NCBI GenBank assembly: GCA_016201825.1
Contig: JACQCD010000085.1
Coordinates: forward strand, 1-62,895
Direction of reading: 5' to 3'
Length of the DNA stretch: 62,895 nucleotides
Origin: Nitrospirota bacterium
GTDB lineage: Bacteria > Nitrospirota > Nitrospiria > 2-01-FULL-66-17
Shown here piece by piece: positions 2,776 through 15,037 of the stretch (positions are counted from its first letter, which is position 1; each line of letters starts with the position of its first letter). The position numbers and the translations under genes are program-made. A model generated the notes under the pieces. It worked only from the letters and a program-made list of their open reading frames with translations. It searched no databases and was not told the DNA's origin.

Positions 2776-3612
2776 ATGGCCATGCCAATTAGAAAACTAG
2801 GTCTCATCGCCGGCAACGGCCGGTTTCCCTTGCTCTTCGCGGACGCCGCAAAACAAGCGGGGTTCACCGTGACGGCGGTGGCCCATCGGGGCGAGACGCC
2901 GGAGGAACTCGAGAAGCGGGTGGATGAGCTGCACTGGATCAAGGTGGGACAACTGGGGCACCTCATCGAGCATTTCAAGGCGGCGGGCGTGGACACGGTG
3001 GTGATGGCGGGGGGGATCACCAAGGCGCGGATGTTCACGGACTATCGCCCCGACCTGCGCGCCCTTAAGGTGCTGGCGCGGGTCCGCCACCTCAAGGACG
3101 ACGTGCTGCTCCGCGCGATCGCGGAGGAATTGGAATCCGAAGGCATCACCGTGGGCGACGCCGCGCACTACCTCCCCGGACTCATCGCGGAAGCCGGGGT
3201 CTTGACCACGCGTCCGTCGAGCGATCAGTGGGAGGACATTCGCTTCGGGGTGACGACGGTGAAAGCGATCGGACGACTGGAGATCGGCCAGTGCGTGGTC
3301 ATCAAGAAGCGGACGGTGCTCGCGGTCGAAGCGATCGAGGGCACCGATGAGACGATCCGCCGCGGCGGGCGGCTCGCGCGGGGCGGGGCGGTCGTCGTGA
3401 AGATGGCCAAGCCCCAGCAAGATCTGCGGTTTGACATCCCCGCGGTGGGTCCCGCCACGATCGAGTCGATGCGGGAGGTGGGGGCGTCGGTGCTGGCCGT
3501 CGAGGCCGGCAAGACCCTGTTGTTGGACCGGGTGGAGCTCTTGGACGCGGCGCGCCGGGCGCGGATCGCGGTGGTGGGGATCACCGAGGAAGCGGAGGCG
3601 AAGGATGGGTAG
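2776..3612 (+). CDS. lpxI: UDP-2,3-diacylglucosamine pyrophosphatase LpxI (DUF1009)
   Basis: LGLIAGNGRFP, IGQCVV, AVEAIEGTDETIRR, KPQQDLRFDIPAVG; start 2776 or 2782. Confidence 0.93.
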   Translation: MAMPIRKLGLIAGNGRFPLLFADAAKQAGFTVTAVAHRGETPEELEKRVDELHWIKVGQLGHLIEHFKAAGVDTVVMAGGITKARMFTDYRPDLRALKVLARVRHLKDDVLLRAIAEELESEGITVGDAAHYLPGLIAEAGVLTTRPSSDQWEDIRFGVTTVKAIGRLEIGQCVVIKKRTVLAVEAIEGTDETIRRGGRLARGGAVVVKMAKPQQDLRFDIPAVGPATIESMREVGASVLAVEAGKTLLLDRVELLDAARRARIAVVGITEEAEAKDG

Positions 3613-4579
3613 CGCGATCAAGGTGGGCGTCATCGGCGTGGGGTACCTCGGACGACATCATGCGCGGCTGTACGCCGAATTGCCCGCGGCCACGTTGGTG
3701 GGCGTCGCGGACGTCGATGAAGGCCGCGCCCGGGACGTGGCGGCGTCGACCGGCGCCAGAGCCTTCACCGACTATCGCGAGCTGCTGTCCCAGGTTGACG
3801 CCGTGAGCGTGGTGGTGCCGACCAGTTTGCACCACCGCGTGGCGATGGATTGTTTGGACGCCGGGTTGGACGTGCTCTTGGAAAAACCGATGACGGTGAC
3901 GCTGGCCGAGGCCGACGAGTTGATCGCGCGCGCCGAGGCGAAGCGGCGCATCATCCAGATCGGCCACCTGGAGCGGTTCAACGGGGCCGTGCGGGCGCTG
4001 GCGCCGCGCCTGACCGCGCCGCGGTTCATCGAGTCGCACCGCCTGGGGCCCTTCGTGGGCCGCGGCACCGACGTCCACGTCATCCTCGATCTCATGATCC
4101 ACGATCTGGACATTATCTTGAGTCTCGTTCGGTCGCCGCTCACCGACATCCGGGCGGTCGGCGTGGCGGTGTTGACTCCCCATATCGACATCGCCAATAC
4201 TCGACTGGAGTTCGCCGACGGGTGCGTGGCGAACGTCACGGCGAGCCGGGTGTCCAAGGACGCGCTGCGCAAGCTGCGCATTTTCCAGCCGGACGCGTAC
4301 TTCTCGCTGGACTATCAGAAGCAAGAGGTCATCATGGCGCGACGCGTGGACGGCGCGACCGAGGCCGGCCTGCCGGCGATCGACATCCAGACGCTCCCGA
4401 TCGAGAAGGAAGAGCCCCTCAAGGCCCAGCTCTCGGCGTTTTTGGATTCCGTGGCGACCCGGCGGGCGCCGTTGGTGTCGGGGCGTGAAGGTCGCAGCGC
4501 CTTGCGGGTGGCGCTGGATGTGCTCACGTGCATCGAGGGCGGTGGTCCCGTCAGAAGAAGCCCGAGCGGTGAAACCTGA
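3605..4579 (+). CDS. Gfo/Idh/MocA NAD-dependent oxidoreductase, GnnA-like (UDP-GlcNAc 3-dehydrogenase candidate)
   Basis: GVIGVGYLG, LLEKP, QIGHLERFN, DLMIHDLD; lies between lpxI and lpxB. Confidence 0.88.
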   Translation: MGSAIKVGVIGVGYLGRHHARLYAELPAATLVGVADVDEGRARDVAASTGARAFTDYRELLSQVDAVSVVVPTSLHHRVAMDCLDAGLDVLLEKPMTVTLAEADELIARAEAKRRIIQIGHLERFNGAVRALAPRLTAPRFIESHRLGPFVGRGTDVHVILDLMIHDLDIILSLVRSPLTDIRAVGVAVLTPHIDIANTRLEFADGCVANVTASRVSKDALRKLRIFQPDAYFSLDYQKQEVIMARRVDGATEAGLPAIDIQTLPIEKEEPLKAQLSAFLDSVATRRAPLVSGREGRSALRVALDVLTCIEGGGPVRRSPSGET

Positions 4580-5808
4580 TGAGCGATGACCGGGCCAACG
4601 TCCTGGCGCCGCCCAGCCCTGAAACGCAGGGCTTGCGCGGCGCCGCGCTGGCGAAGCGGCTCTTTCTCATCGCGGGCGAAGCCTCGGGCGACGCCCACGG
4701 GGGCAAGCTCGCGTCGGCGCTGCTCGCGCGGAACCCCGCACTGAGCCTGGAAGGCGTGGGGGGCGCCGCGATGGAGAAGGCCGGCGTCCGCCTCCGGCAC
4801 GACATCCGTCATCTCGGGGTGGTCGGCCTCGTCGAGGTGCTCTCGCAATGGCGGTCGATCTGGCGGACCTATCGAGACGTGCGGGCGCGGCTGCGCGAGG
4901 CGCCGCCCGACGCGCTGGTGCTGATCGACTATCCCGAATTCAACTTGCGGATTGCGCGCCTGGCGAAGGCGCTCGGCATCCCGGTCATCTATTACGTGAG
5001 TCCCCAGATCTGGGCCTGGCGCCCCGGCCGGATCGCGGCGATCAAGTCCGTCGTCGATCTGATGCTGGTGCTTTTCGAGTTCGAAGCCGAAGTCTACCGC
5101 ACGGCCGGCGTGCCGTGCCGGTTGGTCGGCCATCCCCTGCTCGACGACGCGGCGCCCGATGCCGATCAGGAGACGTTTGCGCGGCGGTATCGCCTGGCGA
5201 CGGGGGAGCGCGCGTTGGGTCTGTTGCCGGGGAGCCGCGCGCTCGAAGTCTCGCGCCTCCTGCCCGCGATGCTGGACGCGGCGGAGCGCCTCCACGCCGC
5301 GGGGACGATCGATCGGGTCCTGGTTGCCGTGGCGCCGTCGATCGACGCCGGCCTGGTCCAATCGTTGGTCGATCGTACCGGGGCGTTTCGCGCCCGCGTG
5401 ACGGTCGCGATCGGCGAGGCGGCCGCCGTCCTCCGCGCCTCGCGCGCGGCGGTGGTCGCGTCGGGCACGGCCACGTTGCAGGCCGCGGTGATCGGCACGC
5501 CCCTGGTGATGGTGTACCGGGTGGCGCCGCTCACCGCGTGGATCGCGCGGCTTCTGATCACGATCCCCCACGTCGCGCTGGTCAACGTCGTGGCGGGGCG
5601 GCGCGTGGTGCCCGAATTGGTCCAGGAGCAGATGACCGCGGAGCGGATCGCGGCCGAGGTCGGTCGCATCTTGACCGACGAGCGTACCGCGTCGGCGATG
5701 CGGGCGGACCTTGCCCGGGTGCGGTCCGCGCTGGGCGAACCGGGGGCCTCGGCCCGCGCGGCGGAGGCCACGCTGGAGTGGCTGGCGCAGGGAGCGCGTC
5801 ATGGTTAG
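4579..5808 (+). CDS. lpxB: Lipid A disaccharide synthase
   Basis: IAGEASGD, IDYPEFN, YYVSPQIWAWRPGR, LLPGSR, SGTATL. Confidence 0.97.
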   Translation: MSDDRANVLAPPSPETQGLRGAALAKRLFLIAGEASGDAHGGKLASALLARNPALSLEGVGGAAMEKAGVRLRHDIRHLGVVGLVEVLSQWRSIWRTYRDVRARLREAPPDALVLIDYPEFNLRIARLAKALGIPVIYYVSPQIWAWRPGRIAAIKSVVDLMLVLFEFEAEVYRTAGVPCRLVGHPLLDDAAPDADQETFARRYRLATGERALGLLPGSRALEVSRLLPAMLDAAERLHAAGTIDRVLVAVAPSIDAGLVQSLVDRTGAFRARVTVAIGEAAAVLRASRAAVVASGTATLQAAVIGTPLVMVYRVAPLTAWIARLLITIPHVALVNVVAGRRVVPELVQEQMTAERIAAEVGRILTDERTASAMRADLARVRSALGEPGASARAAEATLEWLAQGARHG

Positions 5809-7570
5809 CGGCGGGACCTCCCGGGCATCGGTGGTGCGACGGCTTTTGCGCTACGTCAAGCCGTACTGGGGACGCTTTATTCTCGCGTCGGTCTGCGCGG
5901 GAGGCGTGTCCCTGTTGACCGCGGCGAACGCGTGGCTGGTCAAACCGGTGTTGGACGAGATTTTCGTCCAACGCAACACCGCGATGCTCGCCATCCTCCC
6001 GTTCGCCATCGTCGCGGTGGCCGTCGCCAAGCGCGCGTTTCAGTTCGCGCACGTGTACCTGATGGGGTATACCGGCAATCGGATCATCACCGACATTCGG
6101 GACGCGCTGTACCATCACATCCTGAAACTCTCGCTGACCTTCCACGCCACGCACTCCACCGGGGCGTTGATGTCGAACGTGACGAGCGATGTCGCGTTGA
6201 TGCAGCGGGCGGTGTCCGGGGTGATCAAGGATCTCATCCAGCAGCCGCTGACCTTGCTGGCGCTGATGGGGGTGACCATCTATCAGAACTGGCGGATGGC
6301 GTTCATCGCGATCGCGGTCTTGCCGTTCGGGTATTATCCCATGATCCGATTGGGGCGGCGGCTCAAGCGCCTTGCCCACGCCGGCCAGGAGCGAGTGTCG
6401 GAGCTTTCATCCATCCTGCAGGAGACGTTTTCCGGAATCCGGGTGGTCAAGGCGTTCGGCACGGAGGCCTTCGAGGCCGAGCGCCTGCGCGACACGAACC
6501 TTCGCTATTTCCGCAATACGATGAAGGTGACCACGGTCTCCGAGCTGGCGCCGGCGGTGATGGAGGTGCTCGGCGCGATCGGGGGCGCCGCGGTCATCGC
6601 CTACGGCGGCTACGCCGTCGTGTCGGGGCAGATGACAACCGGGGCGTTCTTCTCGTTCCTCACCGCGTCGTTTCTGATGTACGCCCCGATCCGCATCTTG
6701 TCGGCGGCCAACACCGCGATCCTGTCGGCGTCGGCCGCCGCCGAACGGGTCTTCGCCATCCTCGACGTCGAGACCGAAGAAGGAAGGGATCGGGGCCGCC
6801 GCGAGCTGACGGGGGTTCGCGAGGGCATCGAGTTCCGCGACGTGGGGTTTACCTACGACGGCGCCGAGCGAGTCACGCTGGCGGGCATCACCCTGCGGGT
6901 GCGCGCGGGCGAGGTCGTCGCGGTGGTGGGGACCAGCGGAAGCGGGAAGACGACGCTCGTCAATCTCTTGCCGCGCTTCATCGAGCCCACGCGCGGCGCG
7001 ATCTTCATCGACGGAGTGGACGTGCGCGAATTGCGCCTCGCGTCGCTGCGTCGCCACATCGGCGTGGTGAGCCAGGAGGTCGTCTTGTTCGACGACTCGG
7101 TCCGCAACAACATTGCCTATGGGATGACAGACATCGTGCAGGCCGACGTCGTCCGGGCGGCCGAAGCGGCCTACGCCCATCCCTTCATCCTCCAATTGCC
7201 GGCGGGATATGACACCGTGATCGGCGAGCGCGGGGCGACGCTCTCGGGAGGCGAGCGTCAACGGTTGGCCATCGCGCGGGCGCTGCTCAAGGATCCCCCC
7301 ATTCTGATTTTGGACGAGGCGACCTCGGCGCTGGACGCGGAATCCGAGGCGATCGTCCAACGGGCGCTGGCGAACCTGATCGCCCATCGGACCACGTTCG
7401 TGATCGCCCATCGTCTTTCGACGGTCCAACGGGCCAGCCGGATCGTAGTGTTGGACCGAGGGACGATCGTCGAGGAGGGGACCCACGCGAGCCTGCTCGC
7501 CAGGCAGGGCATTTACGCCAACCTGTATCGTATCCAGTTCGAACCCGAGGCGCGCTATGCCGGGTCGTGA
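5801..7570 (+). CDS. msbA: Lipid A export ABC transporter (TMD+NBD)
   Basis: Six-TM domain, Walker A GTSGSGKTT, LSGGERQRLAIARA, DEATSALD; ATG 5801 overlaps the lpxB end. Confidence 0.93.
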   Translation: MVSGGTSRASVVRRLLRYVKPYWGRFILASVCAGGVSLLTAANAWLVKPVLDEIFVQRNTAMLAILPFAIVAVAVAKRAFQFAHVYLMGYTGNRIITDIRDALYHHILKLSLTFHATHSTGALMSNVTSDVALMQRAVSGVIKDLIQQPLTLLALMGVTIYQNWRMAFIAIAVLPFGYYPMIRLGRRLKRLAHAGQERVSELSSILQETFSGIRVVKAFGTEAFEAERLRDTNLRYFRNTMKVTTVSELAPAVMEVLGAIGGAAVIAYGGYAVVSGQMTTGAFFSFLTASFLMYAPIRILSAANTAILSASAAAERVFAILDVETEEGRDRGRRELTGVREGIEFRDVGFTYDGAERVTLAGITLRVRAGEVVAVVGTSGSGKTTLVNLLPRFIEPTRGAIFIDGVDVRELRLASLRRHIGVVSQEVVLFDDSVRNNIAYGMTDIVQADVVRAAEAAYAHPFILQLPAGYDTVIGERGATLSGGERQRLAIARALLKDPPILILDEATSALDAESEAIVQRALANLIAHRTTFVIAHRLSTVQRASRIVVLDRGTIVEEGTHASLLARQGIYANLYRIQFEPEARYAGS

Positions 7571-8227
7571 GGCGGCCTGGCGCCGGTGGGTGCCCTCCGT
7601 GATCGCCGCGCTGATCCGGGGCGTGGGCCGGACGATGCGTCTCGAGACCGTCAACGCCGAGGCAATCATGGCGCGCTGGCGGCGGGGCGAGGCGAGCATC
7701 ATCGCCTTTTGGCACGGCCGCCAACTCATGCTGCCGCTGGCGTATCACGGGTCGGGGCTCACGATTCTGATCAGCCGACATCGCGACGGCGAACTGATCA
7801 GCCGAGCCATGGTGGCGTTTGGGTTCTCCGCCGCGCGCGGGTCGACGACGCGCGGCGGTGCGGTCGGGCTGCGCGCCCTGGTCGACGCGGGTCGGAAGGG
7901 GCGCGATGTGGCCGTCACGCCGGACGGTCCGCGAGGACCTCGCGAGGTCGTGCAGCCGGGCGTGATCCAACTGGCGCGGCTGACCGGTCTCCCGATCGTT
8001 CCGCTGGCGTTCGGGGCCTCAAAAAAAAAATCCTTCGCACCTGGGACGGGTTTCTCATCCCGGTCCCGTTCGCGCGCGGCGTGTTCGTGTGGGGGGACCC
8101 GCTCTGGGTTCCACGCGACCTGGGAGCGGACGGGTTTGAGGAGCGCCGCCGCGCGCTGGAGCAGGCGTTGATCGACGTGACGGGCCGAGCCGATCGACGA
8201 TGGGAGAAGGCGCCGGACCGCGCGTGA
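7557..8227 (+). CDS. DUF374/LpxJ-family lipid A secondary acyltransferase, split by a -1 frameshift at the A10 tract (8021-8030)
   Basis: Frame 0 gives FWHGR, ISRHRDGE, RGSTTRGG, TPDGPRGP up to ...FGASKKK. The -1 frame continues ILRTWDGFLIPVPFARGVFVWGDP...TGA 8227, which overlaps the waaA GTG. Joined product about 223 aa. Confidence 0.85.
8021..8030 (+). repeat. A10 homopolymer at the frameshift site
   Basis: GCCTC-AAAAAAAAAA-TCC in an otherwise very GC-rich gene. Confidence 0.95.
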
Positions 8228-9528
8228 TTCGGCGTCTCTATACGGCGGCCCTTGCCGTCGGTCTGGTCGTGACCGCCCCGAGCTATCTCGCCAAAGCGAT
8301 ACGACGCGGGACGGGCCTGGCCCTGCGCGAGCGGCTGGGACGCCTCCCCGACCATGTCGTCGCGGCGGTGCGCGACCGGCGTGCGGTCTGGGTGCACGCC
8401 GTGTCGGTGGGCGAGGTGACCGCGGCGGTGCCGCTGCTCCGCGAGATCAAAATTCGGTATCCCACGGTGTGTCTGTTCGTTACCACGGTGACCGCGACCG
8501 GGCGCCAGACGGTGATCGAGCGCGTGCCCCAGGCCGACGCCGTCGCCTACTTCCCGCTCGATTTCCCCCGCGTGGTGGATCGACTGTTGGACACGATCAA
8601 CCCGCGCCTGTTTCTCTGCGTGGAAACCGAGCTCTGGCCGAACTTCCTCTCCGCGCTGGCGCGGCGGGGCATCCCGGCCTTTCTGGTAAACGGACGGTTG
8701 AACGCCCGATCGGCGCGACGGTACCGTTGGGCGCGCCGGCTCTTCCAGCCGGTGTTAGCGGGCTTCTATGGGTTTGCCGTCCAGACCACCGCGGATGCCC
8801 AGCGGCTGGCCGGGATCGGCGCGGACCCCGGTCGGATCGTCATCACCGGTAATTTGAAATTCGACCAACCGGCGGATGATGCCGAGACGGGAGATCCAGC
8901 TCGGCGGGTCGGTTTGGGGTTGGCCGCCGACGAACTCCTCTGGGTCGCGGGAAGCACGCGTCAAGGGGAAGAGGAGCCGCTCCTCGAGGCGTACCGTCGG
9001 CTCAGGGGCCGAGGGGTCCGAGTCGTGCTGCTCATCGCTCCCCGGCACCTTGACCGTCTCGACAAGATCGAGGCGATGGTGCGGGCGCGTGGGTTCGACC
9101 CGGTGCGCCGATCGGCGTGTCCGGCGGGGCAGCCGAGTCCCCGCGGGGAGGGCGGCCCCGCCCGGGTCATCGTCCTCGACACGATCGGTGAGTTGGCCGC
9201 GCTCTACGGCGAGGCGGCGCTCGCGTTCGTCGGGGGGACGCTCGTGCCGGTGGGCGGGCACAATCTTCTCGAACCGGCGGCGCGCGGCAAGGCCGTGGTG
9301 TTCGGGCCCCACACGTACAAGTGCGAGGAAATTGCCGCGGCAGTGCTTGAATCGGGCGCCGGTGTGCGGGTCGATTCGGTCGATGCGCTGGAAGAGCAGG
9401 TGGGGCGGTTGTTGGCGGATCCGGTGCTGCGCGAGCGGATGGGCCGCCGCGGGCGTGAGATGGTGGCGAGAAATCAGGGCGCGGTGGAGCGGACGTTGGC
9501 GTTGCTCCATCCGTGGTTGGTGGAATGA
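8224..9528 (+). CDS. waaA: Kdo transferase
   Basis: WVHAVSVGE, ETELWPN, TGNLKFD, GSTR, GGHNLLEPA; GTG 8224. Confidence 0.96.
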   Translation: MIRRLYTAALAVGLVVTAPSYLAKAIRRGTGLALRERLGRLPDHVVAAVRDRRAVWVHAVSVGEVTAAVPLLREIKIRYPTVCLFVTTVTATGRQTVIERVPQADAVAYFPLDFPRVVDRLLDTINPRLFLCVETELWPNFLSALARRGIPAFLVNGRLNARSARRYRWARRLFQPVLAGFYGFAVQTTADAQRLAGIGADPGRIVITGNLKFDQPADDAETGDPARRVGLGLAADELLWVAGSTRQGEEEPLLEAYRRLRGRGVRVVLLIAPRHLDRLDKIEAMVRARGFDPVRRSACPAGQPSPRGEGGPARVIVLDTIGELAALYGEAALAFVGGTLVPVGGHNLLEPAARGKAVVFGPHTYKCEEIAAAVLESGAGVRVDSVDALEEQVGRLLADPVLRERMGRRGREMVARNQGAVERTLALLHPWLVE

Positions 9529-9676: not shown

Positions 9677-10741
9677 GTGATGTCGCTGCTCGTTCAGATT
9701 CCATTGATGATGGCCTCCGGTCTTTACGGCGCCGGGGTCGGAGTCCGTGCGTGGTGGTATCGGCGCGCCGGAGGACGTGTCCACACGCTGGGCCGGCCGG
9801 TGGTGTCGGTGGGCAATCTGACCGTGGGCGGGACCGGCAAGACCCCGCTGGTCATCGCGATCGGAGACGCGCTGCTGGCGCGCGGGGTCGACGTGACGGT
9901 CTTGAGCCGAGGGTATGGGGGAGCGCTGGAACGAGTCGGTGGGCTGGTCTCCGACGGCTCCGGCCGGCGCCCGCTCGACTGGACCGACGCCGGGGATGAG
10001 CCCGCGCTGATCGCTCGGCGGCTCCCACGGGCCGCCGTGATTGTGGGCCGCGATCGCGCGTCCGCGTGGTCGCGGTTCGGGCGCGCCCGCCCGCCGGGCG
10101 TGTGCCTGTTGGACGACGGGTTTCAACACCTGGCGATCGCCCGCGACGAGGATCTCCTCGTGTTGGATGCCACCGAGTCGTACGCGGACGCGGCGCTCTT
10201 GCCGCGCGGTCGGCTGCGCGAGCCGCTGGGCGCGCTGGCGCGCGCGTCTGCGGTCGTCGTCACGCGCGTGGACCAGGCGGCGCCGGGCGCGGTGGAGGCG
10301 ATCGACGCGCTGGTCCGGCGCGTCCGCTCCGACGTCCCGATGTTTTACGCCCGGTTTGCGCTCTCCAGTCTGGCCGCGGTCGGCGCAGGGGGCACGGCCC
10401 CGTTAGACCGCCTGGCGGGCGCCCGCGTCGTGGCGGTCGCCGGTATCGGCCGCTTCAAATCGTTTGTTTCGCTCTTGGAGCGCGCCGGGGCGAAGGTGGT
10501 CGCGACCCTGCGCTTTCGCGACCACTACCCCTACCGGCGCGCCGACGTCGACGCCGTGCGGGCGCGCTGCCGCTCGGTCGGCGCCGATTTTGCGGTGACG
10601 ACGGAGAAAGACGCCGTCAAACTGGAAGCGTTGGTCGCGTCCGGTGAGGCCCTGTGGGCGGTGAGGATGGACGTGCAGGTGGAGGACGCCTTGGCGTGGA
10701 GCGCGTGGCTCGATCGGGTGGCGCGGCTGGTGGCGGCGTGA
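9677..10741 (+). CDS. lpxK: Tetraacyldisaccharide 4'-kinase
   Basis: VVSVGNLTVGGTGKTP, LSRGYG, GDEP, LLDDGFQH, LLPRGRLREP, FRDHY, TTEKDAVK. Confidence 0.96.
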   Translation: MMSLLVQIPLMMASGLYGAGVGVRAWWYRRAGGRVHTLGRPVVSVGNLTVGGTGKTPLVIAIGDALLARGVDVTVLSRGYGGALERVGGLVSDGSGRRPLDWTDAGDEPALIARRLPRAAVIVGRDRASAWSRFGRARPPGVCLLDDGFQHLAIARDEDLLVLDATESYADAALLPRGRLREPLGALARASAVVVTRVDQAAPGAVEAIDALVRRVRSDVPMFYARFALSSLAAVGAGGTAPLDRLAGARVVAVAGIGRFKSFVSLLERAGAKVVATLRFRDHYPYRRADVDAVRARCRSVGADFAVTTEKDAVKLEALVASGEALWAVRMDVQVEDALAWSAWLDRVARLVAA

Positions 10742-11799
10742 AGGCCGATCGGGCGTGGCGCGCGGTTCGCGAGGCGAAGGCGATCGTGGTGCGCGCGCCG
10801 AACTGGATCGGAGACGCCGTCATGGCGACGCCCGCCCTGTCGGCGCTGCGCGCGGGGTGTCCCGATGTTCCGATCACGGTCTTGGCCAAACCGCTGATCG
10901 CGGAAGTCCTGACCCATCACCCCGCGGTCGACGAGATCCTGGTCGACGAAATCCCGGGTCGGCACGCCGGTCCCTCCGGGCGGCTTCGGCTGGCGGCCGA
11001 GATTCGCGCGCGGCGGTTCGACGCCGCATTGCTGCTGACCAATTCATTCGGCTCCGCGCTCGTCATGGCCCTGGCGCGCGTCCCGTGCCGGATCGGCTAC
11101 CGCACCGATGGCCGCTCGATGTGGCTGACCGTGCCGGTCCCCAAACCTTCGCGGGCCCGAGCGCAGCATCTGACCGCGTATTACCTCGAGCTGCTGGCGC
11201 CGTGGAGCCTCGGCGGCTCTCCGACGGACGTTCGGTTATGCGTGACCGAGGACGAGCGGGCCCAGGCCGGGCGGCGGTTGGCGGAGTGGGGGATCGCCCG
11301 TGATGAACCGGTCGTGGGCCTCAACCCCGGCGCGGCGTACGGTCCGGCCAAGCGCTGGCCCGCCCAGCGGTACGCCGAGGTCGCGCGCCGCCTGGTGGTC
11401 GACGGCGCGCGGGTGGTGCTGTTCGGCGACGCGTCCGAACGCTCGCTGGGCGATGCGATCGCCGCGGGCCTCGACCCCGCTCCCGTGAACGCGATGGGGC
11501 GCACCACCCTGCGGGAATCGATGGCCTTGATGACGTGGTGTCGCCACCTCGTGACCAACGACTCCGGCCCGATGCACCTGGCCGCGGCGCTCGGCGTGCC
11601 CGTCACGGCGATCTTCGGTCCGACCGATCCGCGCGCGACCGGTCCGGTCGGCGAGCACGCCACGGTGATCCGGCATCCGGTCGACTGTGCCCCCTGTCGG
11701 TATCGCGAGTGCCCCATCGACCACCGGTGCATGACCGCCGTGTCGGCGGCGGAGGTGTACGCAACCGTGGCTCCCCGACTGGAGGGACTCCGCCGATGA
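10738..11799 (+). CDS. waaF: LPS heptosyltransferase II (GT9)
   Basis: RAPNWIGDAVMA, NPGAAYGPAKRWP, TNDSGPMHLAAA; GTG overlaps the lpxK stop. Confidence 0.92.
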   Translation: MKADRAWRAVREAKAIVVRAPNWIGDAVMATPALSALRAGCPDVPITVLAKPLIAEVLTHHPAVDEILVDEIPGRHAGPSGRLRLAAEIRARRFDAALLLTNSFGSALVMALARVPCRIGYRTDGRSMWLTVPVPKPSRARAQHLTAYYLELLAPWSLGGSPTDVRLCVTEDERAQAGRRLAEWGIARDEPVVGLNPGAAYGPAKRWPAQRYAEVARRLVVDGARVVLFGDASERSLGDAIAAGLDPAPVNAMGRTTLRESMALMTWCRHLVTNDSGPMHLAAALGVPVTAIFGPTDPRATGPVGEHATVIRHPVDCAPCRYRECPIDHRCMTAVSAAEVYATVAPRLEGLRR

Positions 11800-12383
11800 C
11801 ACCGGGGGATGCGGAGCCCCGGATGCGAGGTGCTCGTCTTGAGGTGGTGTTCCTCGACCGGGACGGAACGCTCAACCGAGACGACGAAGGATATCTCGCC
11901 GACCCCGACCGAGTCGTGCTCCTCCCGGGCGCGGTGGAGGCGGTGAGGTCGCTGAACGCGGCGGGGATCAAAGCGGTGGTCGTGACCAATCAATCCGGGA
12001 TTGGTCGCGGGTTGATCACGGAGGAGGCCCTGAGCCGCATTCATGAGCGGTTGATCGCGTTGCTCGCGGCCGGCGGCGCGATGCTCGACGGGATCTTTGT
12101 GTGTCCCCATCGGCCCGAACACGGATGCCCCTGCCGGAAGCCGGGCACCGAGCTGGCCCTCCAGGCGGCCCGTCACTTGGGGGTGGATCCCTCGCGCTCC
12201 GCGATGATCGGCGACCTACCGGCGGACGTGGCGCTGGCGCATCGACTCGGCGGCCGGGCGGTGCTGGTCCTCACCGGACATGGGAGGCGAACCGACGTGG
12301 AGTGGGCGGATGAACCGCGGCCGCATTATATTGCGAACGACGTCTACGACGGAGTACAATGGCTCATTTTGAGCCAGGACTGA
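11796..12383 (+). CDS. gmhB: D,D-heptose 1,7-bisphosphate phosphatase
   Basis: FLDRDGTL, TNQSGIGRG, CPHRPEHGCPCRKP, MIGD. Confidence 0.93.
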   Translation: MTPGDAEPRMRGARLEVVFLDRDGTLNRDDEGYLADPDRVVLLPGAVEAVRSLNAAGIKAVVVTNQSGIGRGLITEEALSRIHERLIALLAAGGAMLDGIFVCPHRPEHGCPCRKPGTELALQAARHLGVDPSRSAMIGDLPADVALAHRLGGRAVLVLTGHGRRTDVEWADEPRPHYIANDVYDGVQWLILSQD

Positions 12384-13489
12384 TGCCGACGTCTTCTGCG
12401 AACGCCCGGCCCGTGGTAGGATCCGCCCCTCGGATTGCGGTGGTGAAGTTGGGCGCGCTGGGGGACGGCTTGTACACGTTTCCGGTCGTGTCCGCTCTCA
12501 AGGCGTTTCGACCGCGGGCCACGATTACCTGGGTGGTTGAAGAACGCCTGCGCGATCTGCCGCGCCTGCATCCCGCGGTGGACGAGATCGTGACGATCGA
12601 TACGCGGGGGTGGCGCCTCGCGGCTCGGCGCGGGCGGTGGGCGACCGCGTGGCGGGGGATCGCCGGCTACTACCGGAGCGTGGCGGGTCGCTTCGACGTG
12701 GTCCTCGACGTCCAGGGGCTGCTCAAGAGCGGCGTCGCGGCATGGCTGACGGGGGCTCCGGTGCGCATCGGGTTTGCGCCGGAGGACTGCCGGGAACCGC
12801 TGAGCGCGCGCCTCATGACGCACCACGCCGCGCCCGCGGGACGAGTCCACGCCCTGACGAGGAACCTCGGTCTGCTGGGCGCGTTGGGCGCGCCGATCGG
12901 GCCGCCCCGGGTTGATGTGGTTCCGGCGCCGGCGGACGAGACCTGGGCGGCGGAGCGTCTGGCGGCGCACGGGATCGAGCGGGACGATCAACTCGCGGCG
13001 ATCCATCCCGGAGCGGGACACCCGGCGAAGCGATGGGCGTTCGGCCGCTTTCTTTCGCTCGCGGAGCGGCTGGGACGGGTCCCAGGGGTTCGCGCGGTGC
13101 TCGTGGCGGGGCCGGAGGACCGCGCGGCGGTCGAGGAGGCCGCAACGCGGATGGCATCGCCCCCGGCGGTCATCGCGCCGCCGAGCCTCGGGAACCTGGC
13201 GGCGCTGCTGCGGCGGTGCCGGGTGGTGATCGCGGGCGACACGGGCCCCTTGCATCTGGCGGCCGCGCTCGGCGTGAGGACGGTGGCGCTGTATGGGCCG
13301 TCCGATCCCGTTCTGGCCGCCCCCGTTGGGACCGGTCACCGGGTCATCAAGTACCCGTGCGCGTGCGGCTGGACGCCGGGCCCGTTTTTCAACCGCCGGT
13401 GCGTCGACCCGCCGTGCATGGCCGCGATCGGGATCGACGAGGTGTGTGACGTCACCGAGCAGGCGCTGGCGGCCGCGGCGGTCGCGTGA
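12383..13489 (+). CDS. GT9 heptosyltransferase (WaaC-like)
   Basis: VKLGALGD, DVQGLLKSG, HPGAGHPAKRW, GDTGPLHLAAA. Confidence 0.85.
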   Translation: MPTSSANARPVVGSAPRIAVVKLGALGDGLYTFPVVSALKAFRPRATITWVVEERLRDLPRLHPAVDEIVTIDTRGWRLAARRGRWATAWRGIAGYYRSVAGRFDVVLDVQGLLKSGVAAWLTGAPVRIGFAPEDCREPLSARLMTHHAAPAGRVHALTRNLGLLGALGAPIGPPRVDVVPAPADETWAAERLAAHGIERDDQLAAIHPGAGHPAKRWAFGRFLSLAERLGRVPGVRAVLVAGPEDRAAVEEAATRMASPPAVIAPPSLGNLAALLRRCRVVIAGDTGPLHLAAALGVRTVALYGPSDPVLAAPVGTGHRVIKYPCACGWTPGPFFNRRCVDPPCMAAIGIDEVCDVTEQALAAAAVA

Positions 13490-13522
13490 CCGCCGCCGGC
13501 TCACGCTGGGGAAGGAGCAATG

Positions 13523-13690
13523 ATGGCAATCGATCGAGCGTTGCTGGACATTCTGGTGTGTCCCAAGTGCAAGGGGGACCTTCGGCTGACCGACCAGGGG
13601 GACGGTCTGGTCTGTGCGGCGTGCCGGTTGAGGTACCCCATCAAGGACGACATCCCGGTGATGTTGATCGACGAGGCGGTGCGTCTCTGA
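13523..13690 (+). CDS. Trm112/YcaR-family small protein (55 aa; missed by the ORF track)
   Basis: [20 protein letters not shown]...[24 protein letters not shown]; RBS AAGGAG at 13512-13517. Confidence 0.9.
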
Positions 13691-13701
13691 CACGACCGAC
13701 G

Positions 13702-14250
13702 ATGTGGCCGCGCATCCGACACTACCTGGGCTATCACCGCGTCCCGATTAGTTTCGGCTTGGGCCTGCTCTTCTGGATGTTGGCGTCCCCGACGTGGCGT
13801 TCGATCGCGCTCGGCCTGCCGATCGTGGCGGCGGGCGAGGGGCTGCGGATTTGGTCGTCGGGCACGCTGGAGAAGAACGTCGCCATCGCCAGCGCCGGGC
13901 CATACGCCTACACGAGGAACCCCCTGTACCTGGGCAACTTTTTCATCGGATTGGGATTCGTGCTGATGGGCGGCAACCCGTGGTTGATCGGCCTGTATCT
14001 GGTCGTGTTCCCGATGGTGTACGTCCCCACGGTGCTCGAAGAAGAGCGCTTCCTTCGCGGGAAGTTCGGTGCACCCTACGAGGCCTACCTCCGGCGGGTG
14101 CCGAGATTCTTTCCGACCCGGTCGGTGACGCCGCAGCGCACCGGCCAGTTTCGGTGGGGGTTGGTCAAGGATCACCGCGAGTACCGGACCTGGTATGGCT
14201 TGGGTGCCGGCCTCGCGGCCGTGCTCCTCCGAGCGATCCTGGTCGCGTAG
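13702..14250 (+). CDS. Isoprenylcysteine carboxyl methyltransferase (Ste14/ICMT)-family membrane methyltransferase
   Basis: GEGLRIWS, GPYAYTRNPLYLG, EERFLRGKFG, YEAYLRRVPRFFP. Confidence 0.88.
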   Translation: MWPRIRHYLGYHRVPISFGLGLLFWMLASPTWRSIALGLPIVAAGEGLRIWSSGTLEKNVAIASAGPYAYTRNPLYLGNFFIGLGFVLMGGNPWLIGLYLVVFPMVYVPTVLEEERFLRGKFGAPYEAYLRRVPRFFPTRSVTPQRTGQFRWGLVKDHREYRTWYGLGAGLAAVLLRAILVA

Positions 14251-14257
14251 GGGCGGT

Positions 14258-15037
14258 GTGAGCCGAATCTCGGTCACTATCATCACACTCAACGAAGCCG
14301 CGAACATTCGCGAGTGCCTTGAGAGCGTGCGGTGGGCGGATGAAATCGTCGTGGTCGATTCCGAGAGCCGCGACGACACGGTGAAAATCAGTCGCGAGTT
14401 CACGGACCGCGTGTTCGTCAATCCGTGGCCGGGCCACCAAGAGCAGAAGAACGTGGCGGTGGACAAGGCGACGGGGCCGTGGATTTTCAGCTTGGATGCG
14501 GATGAGCGAGTAACGCCGGCCCTCGCCGAAGAAATTCGGCGGATGGTGGCGGAGCCGGGCGCGCTCGAGGCGTACGACATGCCCCGGAAAAACTATTTTC
14601 TCGGCCGATGGATGCGGCACGGCGGCTGGTGGCCCGATCGGGTCATCCGGCTCTTCCAAAAGGAGCGGGGCCGATTCGGGGGCATCAACCCCCACGACCG
14701 GGTGATCGTCGACGGCCGGCTGGGAAGGCTGGAGCATCCCCTCATCCATCATACGTATCGAAGCTTCGCGCAGTATATCGACAAGCAACACAGCTATGCG
14801 GTGATCGGAGCCCGCGAACTCCTGAAGCGCCGAGGAGGACGGCGGCGGACGGCGGCGGCGATGATCGCCAAGGGCATGACGAAGTTCGCCGAGGTGTACC
14901 TGCTGAAACGGGGCGCCTTGGACGGGATGCACGGCCTGATCGCGGCGATGGGCGCGTCGTATTTCGCCTTTTTGCGACAGGCCTTGGTGTGGGAGCTTCA
15001 GGCTCGCGACCGCGCCCGAACGCCCGGAGGGTCGTGA
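14258..15037 (+). CDS. GT2 glycosyltransferase (KdtX/WaaE beta-1,4-glucosyltransferase-like)
   Basis: ISVTIITLNE, VVDSESRDDT, LDADERVT, GGWWPD. Confidence 0.88.
   Translation: MSRISVTIITLNEAANIRECLESVRWADEIVVVDSESRDDTVKISREFTDRVFVNPWPGHQEQKNVAVDKATGPWIFSLDADERVTPALAEEIRRMVAEPGALEAYDMPRKNYFLGRWMRHGGWWPDRVIRLFQKERGRFGGINPHDRVIVDGRLGRLEHPLIHHTYRSFAQYIDKQHSYAVIGARELLKRRGGRRRTAAAMIAKGMTKFAEVYLLKRGALDGMHGLIAAMGASYFAFLRQALVWELQARDRARTPGGS

Follow-up and report, generated by a model that had tools for sequence, protein, structure and literature searches.

The window analysed here comprises 62,895 nucleotides (nt) of a Nitrospirota contig (JACQCD010000085.1 of assembly GCA_016201825.1, positions 1–62,895), and the gene in question, referred to below as X, is an open reading frame (ORF) that runs from ATG to TAG, fills exactly positions 13702–14250 of the + strand, and encodes 182 amino acids (aa). 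X lies within a long block of genes that are on the + strand throughout, from position 2 to approximately 24776, in the order skp, lpxD, fabZ, lpxA, lpxI, a GFO/IDH/MocA oxidoreductase gene, lpxB, msbA, a DUF374 gene, waaA, lpxK, a WaaF-like gene of glycosyltransferase family 9 (GT9), gmhB, a WaaC-like GT9 gene, a Trm112-like gene, and X. A first-pass annotation of this DNA had placed an ICMT-family gene among genes for 3-deoxy-D-manno-oct-2-ulosonic acid (Kdo) and heptose, and the gene order bears this out, with waaA, lpxK, the two GT9 genes, and gmhB upstream of X and a run of GT2, GT4, and GT9 glycosyltransferase genes followed by a Wzy_C/WaaL ligase gene downstream.

X begins 11 nt past the stop codon of the Trm112-like gene (13690), and its own stop codon is 7 nt ahead of the following GT2 gene, provided that GTG 14258 is where the latter starts. 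Terminator-like sites were absent from the + strand between positions 12300 and 15200, and no promoter-like site was found directly ahead of X, the sole match being 1.3 kb upstream (12331–12360), near the start of waaC. Given the short gaps, the lack of a + strand terminator, and the lack of a promoter-like site of its own, X was counted as one cistron in the lipid A/core operon. The nearest members of this operon, all on the + strand, are the genes for an MsbA-type ABC flippase (5711–7570; library match), the Kdo transferase WaaA/KdtA (8200–9528; 205 bits), the lipid A 4'-kinase LpxK (9677–10741; 282 bits), a WaaF-like GT9 heptosyltransferase II (10654–11799; 234 bits, above the cut-off), a GmhB-type heptose bisphosphate phosphatase (11535–12383), a WaaC-like GT9 heptosyltransferase (12359–13489; best NCBIfam match heptosyltransferase I, with 166 bits against a cut-off of 185), and a 56-aa Trm112/YcaR-like zinc ribbon (13520–13690; PF03966, 52 bits, with the NCBIfam models Trm112_arch and YcaR below their cut-offs). 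The HAD domain of the GmhB-type protein begins only at about residue 103, and the true start of its gene is therefore probably later than 11535. For the GT2 gene just downstream of X (14258–15037, +), Pfam similarity starts at residue 26 when a longer ORF is translated; the likely start is GTG 14258, which gives an N-terminus typical of GT2 proteins (M-S-R-I-S-V-T-I-I-T-L-N), and a start at ATG 14195 would overlap X by 56 nt.

X is a real gene, and its product is a membrane methyltransferase of the ICMT/PEMT superfamily, as judged from Pfam scores above threshold, an ICMT-type helical fold, and the presence of the R-x-P-x-Y...EE motifs. The Pfam model PEMT (PF04191) matched X with 38.6 bits (threshold 25, E 1.6e-9), the match being limited to the common C-terminal core (profile positions 37–103 of 105), and the model ICMT (PF04140) matched narrowly, with 25.5 bits against a threshold of 24. 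A database search returned 3430 homologues, mostly of 180–185 aa, the closest of which shows 92% full-length identity; their alignments begin at residue 2–3 of X, which supports the start codon. These homologues are named 'protein-S-isoprenylcysteine O-methyltransferase Ste14'; the names are automatic transfers, and on the corresponding equivalog model (NF040696) X scored 39.9 bits, below the cut-off of 160.

The AlphaFold2 model of X, built from a 55-sequence alignment, had a predicted local distance difference test score of 85.8 and a predicted template-modelling score of 0.81, and contains five long helices (approximately residues 13–27, 32–55, 73–89, 93–122, and 161–181). In an exhaustive structural comparison against 48,161 chains, ICMT 5vg9 ranked first (Z 9.1, root-mean-square deviation 3.6 Å over 123 residues), followed by an AtTam46 chain and by Ma-ICMT 4a2n (Z 7.0). 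Foldseek against the PDB returned nothing at E ≤ 0.001, its top match being ICMT at E 0.047; the ICMT fold was seen clearly only in the wide search with VIA-align. Searching with a profile of the X clade gave E-values of 1.4e-9 for Ma-ICMT (4A2N) and 6e-8 for Tribolium ICMT, and a feature search of the ESM Atlas returned generic ICMT-family clusters only.

Four motifs, GPYxxTRNPLYxG, EE..L...F, VPR..P, and HRE(Y), make up the signature of X, and a transmembrane (TM) helix at the C-terminus comes after the last of them. Across the 55 members of the X clade, the invariant residues are R13, P30, G45, R49, G54, K58, and G66-P-Y in the N-terminal part; T71-R-N-P-L-Y, G78, G85-F, Y107, E114, L118, and F122 in the middle; and V133-P, P138, F150, and E160 in the C-terminal part, with E115 (54/55), R135, H158, and R159 nearly so. 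The S-adenosylmethionine (SAM)-binding and catalytic motifs of the superfamily are thus kept, and R72, P74, and Y76 of the RxPxY motif as well as E114 do not vary in any member. In the profile alignment, the invariant R49 coincides with Arg173 of Tribolium ICMT, which together with Arg246 positions the substrate carboxylate in that enzyme (PMC8358657); judged by this alignment, R49 fits an anionic acceptor. Lysine and arginine residues are concentrated in segment 113–160 (11), with two at the N-terminus, two in loop 56–72, and none in loops 28–31 and 90–92 or at the C-terminus, and on the basis of this distribution we infer a topology of five TM helices, N-in/C-out, in which all of the conserved motifs would be cytoplasmic.

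The association of X with lipopolysaccharide (LPS) genes recurs well beyond the window. Among 31 same-class genomes, a family match at E ≤ 0.001 was obtained in 26; 23 of these have X-clade orthologues, and three, all of family f10, carry only members of a paralogous group that we refer to as clade B. Flanking sequence was retrieved for 20 of the orthologues, covering 9 of the 11 sampled families, which are all of the families with an X-clade orthologue. The first-pass annotation had allowed that homologues might turn out to lie mostly outside LPS loci; instead, all 20 sit within an msbA-DUF374-waaA-lpxK-waaF-gmhB-waaC-Trm112-[GT2]-X cluster, with X directly after the Trm112 gene or after the Trm112 gene and one GT2 gene. 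Three genomes from other classes of the phylum share this context, one of them (G040) with the order GT9-X-Trm112. In homologues from Acidobacteriota/Terriglobales (40–47% identity), X ends the series waaA-lpxK-hldE(kinase)-hldE(adenylyltransferase)-GT9-X and overlaps the GT9 gene by 8 nt. A metagenome scan yielded 80 X loci, 74 of them with 250 nt or more of DNA upstream (grouping into 27 clusters by single linkage at 70% identity), and in every one of the 74 the gene immediately upstream and on the same strand encodes a GT9 (71) or a Trm112 protein (3); some of these loci read waaA-lpxK-GT9-X without hldE. Among distant representatives, the arrangements yajC-X-lpxB and gmhB-hldE-GT9-X::DUF3108 were found, the latter being a fusion that overlaps the GT9 gene by 4 nt (L176:3056-4249). 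The clade, of which X is taken here as the founding member, is sizeable: at E ≤ 1e-30 its profile matches the representatives of 779 clusters formed at 50% identity.

This adjacency is specific to the X clade, since the clade B paralogues, Leptospira LmtA, and two LmtA-clade genes from metagenome-assembled genomes (MAGs) all lie outside LPS core loci, LmtA-clade genes doing so in all three places sampled. We consider the evidence for the link of X to LPS core loci strong. Two kinds of fusion were also encountered in the clade. In some lineages X is joined at its predicted periplasmic C-terminus to DUF3108, a YmcC-fold beta-barrel (P0264, P0299, P0302, P0361); tandem X-X fusions of 410–604 aa with two ICMT-like domains also occur (P0253, P0255, P0293, P0303, P0331, P0368).

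X is nonetheless an accessory, decorating enzyme and not a biosynthetic necessity, as can be seen from close relatives that have complete lpxK/GT9 clusters and lack it. When the phylum was sampled evenly (201 genomes), 12 genomes, from families f1, f9, f19, and f21, had an orthologue at E ≤ 1e-32; the largest families had none (0/42, 0/38, 0/19, and 0/18). In five 99%-complete relatives without X, a similar cluster is present that still contains lpxK along with between three and seven GT9 genes. The idea that loss of X is tied to loss of the heptose genes was considered and rejected, as the genomes without X retain lpxK and several GT9 genes.

The first-pass annotation had proposed that X is an LmtA-type methylase of lipid A phosphate, and it is the comparison with LmtA on which this proposal fails as a statement of family. 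LmtA (TIGR04571) is the top NCBIfam match of X; the score, however, is 49.9 bits (E 3.4e-13) and the match covers model positions 88–191 of 252 only, within the catalytic core, whereas the reference LmtA proteins from four Leptospira genomes score 459–469 bits against a cut-off of 325. Other paralogues of the same genome score 47.9, 41.7, and 39.9 bits on this model, and because they do nearly as well as X, the match is to be read as similarity at the level of the superfamily. By BLASTP, X and LmtA of L. interrogans are 33% identical over 120 residues (X 62–179, LmtA 88–204), and over this stretch they share the ICMT/PEMT core elements G-x-Y, R-x-P-L-Y-x-G-N-F, EE-x-FLR-x-KFG-x-x-Y, and VP-x-F-x-P. 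Both keep the equivalent of Arg173, and both are plausibly linked to Kdo-lipid A. After the core, X, LmtA, and clade B have in common an F-x-W/S... segment, REY (X and LmtA) or DEH (clade B), and then a TM helix, an extension that the short ICMT-like paralogues and the ICMTs lack. LmtA is, on the other hand, 250 aa long, so that X is shorter by 68 residues, and its N-terminal periplasmic loop, NTKEQ insertion, and extra C-terminal helix ending in LHVEGR are absent from X. The clades also differ in their motifs, with RHPLY in 104 of 110 and Y-Y-E in 105 of 110 LmtA-clade sequences (the latter within a conserved Y-Y-E-R), whereas the X clade has RNPLY in 55 of 55 and Y-x-P. In their genomes, LmtA and its 246-aa relatives stand alone, whereas X lies within LPS operons; and the activity of LmtA is proven, whereas X is known from sequence, model, and gene context.

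A careful maximum-likelihood tree was computed from 49 sequences, excluding the paralogue on contig C83 of the same genome, whose long branch (4.6) made its placement unreliable. X falls in a supported clade of its own (98/90), apart from LmtA (95/88), clade B (100/99), and the short ICMT-like paralogues (93/87). In the best tree its partner is clade B (92/79) rather than LmtA; a grouping of X with LmtA was not rejected by the approximately unbiased (AU) test (p 0.27). Judged by sequence, then, X is a relative of LmtA that falls outside the LmtA family. The genome of the window yielded no LmtA-clade member, its four family matches belonging to other clades or being unplaced. Apart from X, these are the ICMT/PEMT-superfamily paralogues C129:5688-6188, C61:44245-44493, and C83:609-881. 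The first is the genome's clade B copy (L069:5667-6278, − strand; 36% identity to X), which lies between a GT4 gene and purH. Clade B is the closest relative of X by sequence as well as by tree (36–38% identity over the full length) and shares (K/R)NPLY and Y-x-P with it; it differs in having E-S/G-D in place of EE and DEH in place of HRE, and in its location outside LPS core loci. True LmtA-clade proteins of 246–253 aa, approximately 50% identical to Leptospira LmtA over the full length, were observed as stand-alone genes in proteobacterial MAGs (P0205-P0242; L160, L161); lipid A 1-phosphate methylation may thus occur outside Leptospira by way of genuine LmtA orthologues.

The two eponymous families of the superfamily resemble X in other respects. 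ICMT/Ste14 (Tribolium 5V7P/5VG9; Ma-ICMT 4A2N) shares with X the fold, the SAM-binding C-terminal core, the first acceptor arginine, and an active site in the cytosolic leaflet, which for X is predicted; unlike X, the eukaryotic enzyme has eight TM helices instead of five, lacks the HREY segment and the TM helix that follows it, and retains the second arginine, and the genomic context of X offers no prenyl-protein substrate. PEMT is the best-scoring Pfam model and has a substrate in the class of membrane lipids, as X is proposed to have, but only the shared C-terminal core matches, and the synteny of X is with LPS and not with phospholipid synthesis.

The reading that we favour, with a probability of roughly 0.6, is that X is a SAM-dependent LPS-assembly methyltransferase that would act on an acidic oxygen of nascent Kdo-(heptose)-lipid A. 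In this scheme LpxK, WaaA, and WaaC would act first on the intermediate as it sits in the inner membrane's inner leaflet, X would then methylate an acidic oxygen of Kdo-(heptose)-lipid A at the cytoplasmic face, one negative charge would be removed from the lipid A-inner core region, and MsbA would flip the methylated molecule afterwards. As to the acceptor, a lipid A phosphate, by analogy with LmtA, is our tentative first choice, put well short of even odds; it is favoured because the lipid A-Kdo region is the common denominator of all of the arrangements in which X is found (next to GT9, lpxK/waaA, or lpxB genes). The Kdo carboxylate is a less likely acceptor, and another LPS-linked group would be rather improbable. 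LmtA, which methylates the 1-phosphate of Kdo2-lipid A, is the only characterised bacterial enzyme of the superfamily that acts on a glycolipid (PMC4402001). A hint that E. coli can harbour such a protein in active form may come from pC12, a functional-metagenomics clone from Antarctic-soil Acidobacteria, which carries a heptosyltransferase I fragment and an ICMT-family gene, orf2, and in which the ICMT ORF alone improved the growth of E. coli at 15 °C, a result that its authors read in terms of a prenylation enzyme (PMC9717686). The gene pair of pC12 corresponds to the GT9-X arrangement of Acidobacteriota, orf2 being a putative member of the X clade.

Several observations weigh against this proposal. 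The closest relatives in the best tree, those of clade B, are not LPS-linked. The equivalent of Arg246, present as 'ER' in LmtA, is Pro109 in 44 of the 55 X-clade members, so that the second acceptor arginine is gone, and the His of RHPxY is replaced by Asn (position 73) in all 55; since the second arginine is missing and the His is exchanged, the acceptor pocket of X differs from those of ICMT and LmtA, and the same site as in LmtA is therefore not to be assumed. The single tandem X-X fusion whose surroundings were examined (P0253; L177:2693-4507) lies outside any LPS locus, and the synteny samples come mostly from two phyla and are mutually non-independent. According to a 2023 survey, Leptospira is the only source from which methylated lipid A phosphate has been described (PMC10248169), and among the papers searched there were no lipid A structures from X-carrying Nitrospirota or Acidobacteriota. 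The authors of the pC12 study did not link its phenotype to LPS, and the chemistry proposed for the acceptor of X rests on sequence and gene context.

One further element of the first-pass annotation, which concerns its interpretation and not the function of X, is the suggestion that a GnnA-like gene, together with the ICMT-family gene, points to lipid A of the Leptospira type, built on a diamino backbone. The gene is indeed present between lpxI and lpxB, where a GFO/IDH/MocA oxidoreductase is encoded (3431–4579, +; NCBIfam and BLAST comparison). Its best NCBIfam match is UDP-GlcNAc 3-dehydrogenase, with 235.7 bits, below the cut-off of 450, and the protein is 39% identical to an L. interrogans homologue, so GnnA-type chemistry is possible. 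No GnnB-type aminotransferase linked to this gene was found: the three DegT genes present in the genome, which lie in the window's Pse cluster, in a different sugar cluster, and next to a pilin gene, had only generic aminotransferase matches and are not assignable, including the two unlinked ones on C88 and C104. A diamino backbone may exist, and the case for a Leptospira-like lipid A as a whole is weak.

The combination of these ideas, in which X is an LmtA-type methylase of the lipid A 1-phosphate and, with the GnnA-like gene, produces a diamino, methyl-phosphate lipid A like that of Leptospira, is possible in our view and short of probable. It can draw on LmtA being the best NCBIfam match of X, on the identity that extends over the catalytic core and the C-terminal REY segment, on the survival of the X+LmtA grouping in the AU test, and on the best match of the GFO gene; set against these are a TIGR04571 score that the paralogues of the genome nearly equal, the missing loop, insertion, and helix, the separate clade paired with clade B, the proline in place of the 'ER' arginine, the existence in other phyla of true LmtA-clade proteins, of which none was found in the genome of the window, and the lack of a linked GnnB. 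An ICMT-type chemistry transferred to a glycolipid, in which X would methyl-esterify an inner-core carboxylate (of Kdo or a uronic acid), is less likely still. ICMT-fold enzymes are carboxyl methyltransferases, the carboxylate-binding arginine represented by R49 is invariant, and the gene partner to which X is bound most closely is that for the heptosyltransferase acting on Kdo, X lying directly downstream of it and, in Acidobacteriota, sharing overlapping codons with it; the second carboxylate-binding arginine is absent, however, and in the yajC-X-lpxB arrangement there is no adjacent heptose or Kdo gene, which leaves lipid A as the common denominator. To our knowledge, no Kdo methyl ester has been described in LPS.

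Readings in which X merely accompanies envelope genes or has nothing to do with LPS account for less of the evidence. A phospholipid or small-lipid methyltransferase, such as one for PEMT-like N-methylation of phosphatidylethanolamine or one acting on polyprenyl-phosphate, would suit the best-scoring Pfam family, the chemical versatility of the superfamily, and the one tandem fusion outside LPS loci, but it sits poorly with the strict same-strand adjacency to GT9, Trm112, or lpxB genes in at least four operon architectures and two phyla, and with the lack of such LPS adjacency in the paralogous clades, and we hold it to be improbable. Least likely is a methyltransferase for protein prenylcysteine or, since MddA-type enzymes belong to the ICMT/PEMT superfamily, for a small thiol, unrelated to LPS; the Ste14 annotation of the homologues speaks for it, yet those names are automatic, the X locus implies no bacterial CaaX-prenylation machinery, and the synteny is with LPS genes.

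Under the favoured reading of X as an LPS-assembly methyltransferase, the X clade would be an LmtA-related but distinct clade dedicated to LPS. So far a single genus and a single enzyme are known for lipid A methylation, the 2023 survey treating the methylated phosphate as unique to Leptospira (PMC10248169), and no description of ICMT-family genes as components of LPS loci was found in the literature searched. A distinct and sizeable clade bound to lipid A, Kdo, and heptose genes in two abundant environmental phyla is thus a candidate for a second LPS methyltransferase. If the reading is right, it would represent a new route to an inner core with less negative charge, with possible effects on cation bridging, the stability of the outer membrane, resistance to cationic peptides, and recognition by innate immunity, and would correct the widespread automatic annotation as 'protein-S-isoprenylcysteine O-methyltransferase Ste14'. 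A narrower version, which we advance as speculation and think doubtful, is that the clade neutralises charge in the lipid A-inner core by a methylation as yet undescribed, on the Kdo carboxylate or on a phosphate other than that used by LmtA, that is common in soil Acidobacteriota (Terriglobales) and in parts of Nitrospirota. LPS carrying methyl esters would on this view be widespread in the environment and no peculiarity of Leptospira, and in some lineages the modification may be tied to the DUF3108 (periplasmic YmcC-fold) domain with which the enzyme is fused.

Two observations on the neighbours of X complete the description of the locus. The Trm112/YcaR-like gene adjoins X, or is one GT2 gene away, in most of the Nitrospirota relatives with flanks, in both orders; the clusters of family f3 have neither X nor Trm112, one genome (G012) has Trm112 without X, and the Acidobacteriota X loci have no Trm112 nearby. 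Trm112 proteins are partners of methyltransferases in archaea and eukaryotes. A predicted complex of X with the neighbouring Trm112/YcaR-like protein had a score of 0.00, which gives no verdict on binding either way. Lastly, in a related Nitrospirae MAG the WaaF-like GT9 and GmhB are fused into one protein of 544 aa (L011:1603-3237), whereas the window has two distinct genes for them, read in different frames (10654–12383).

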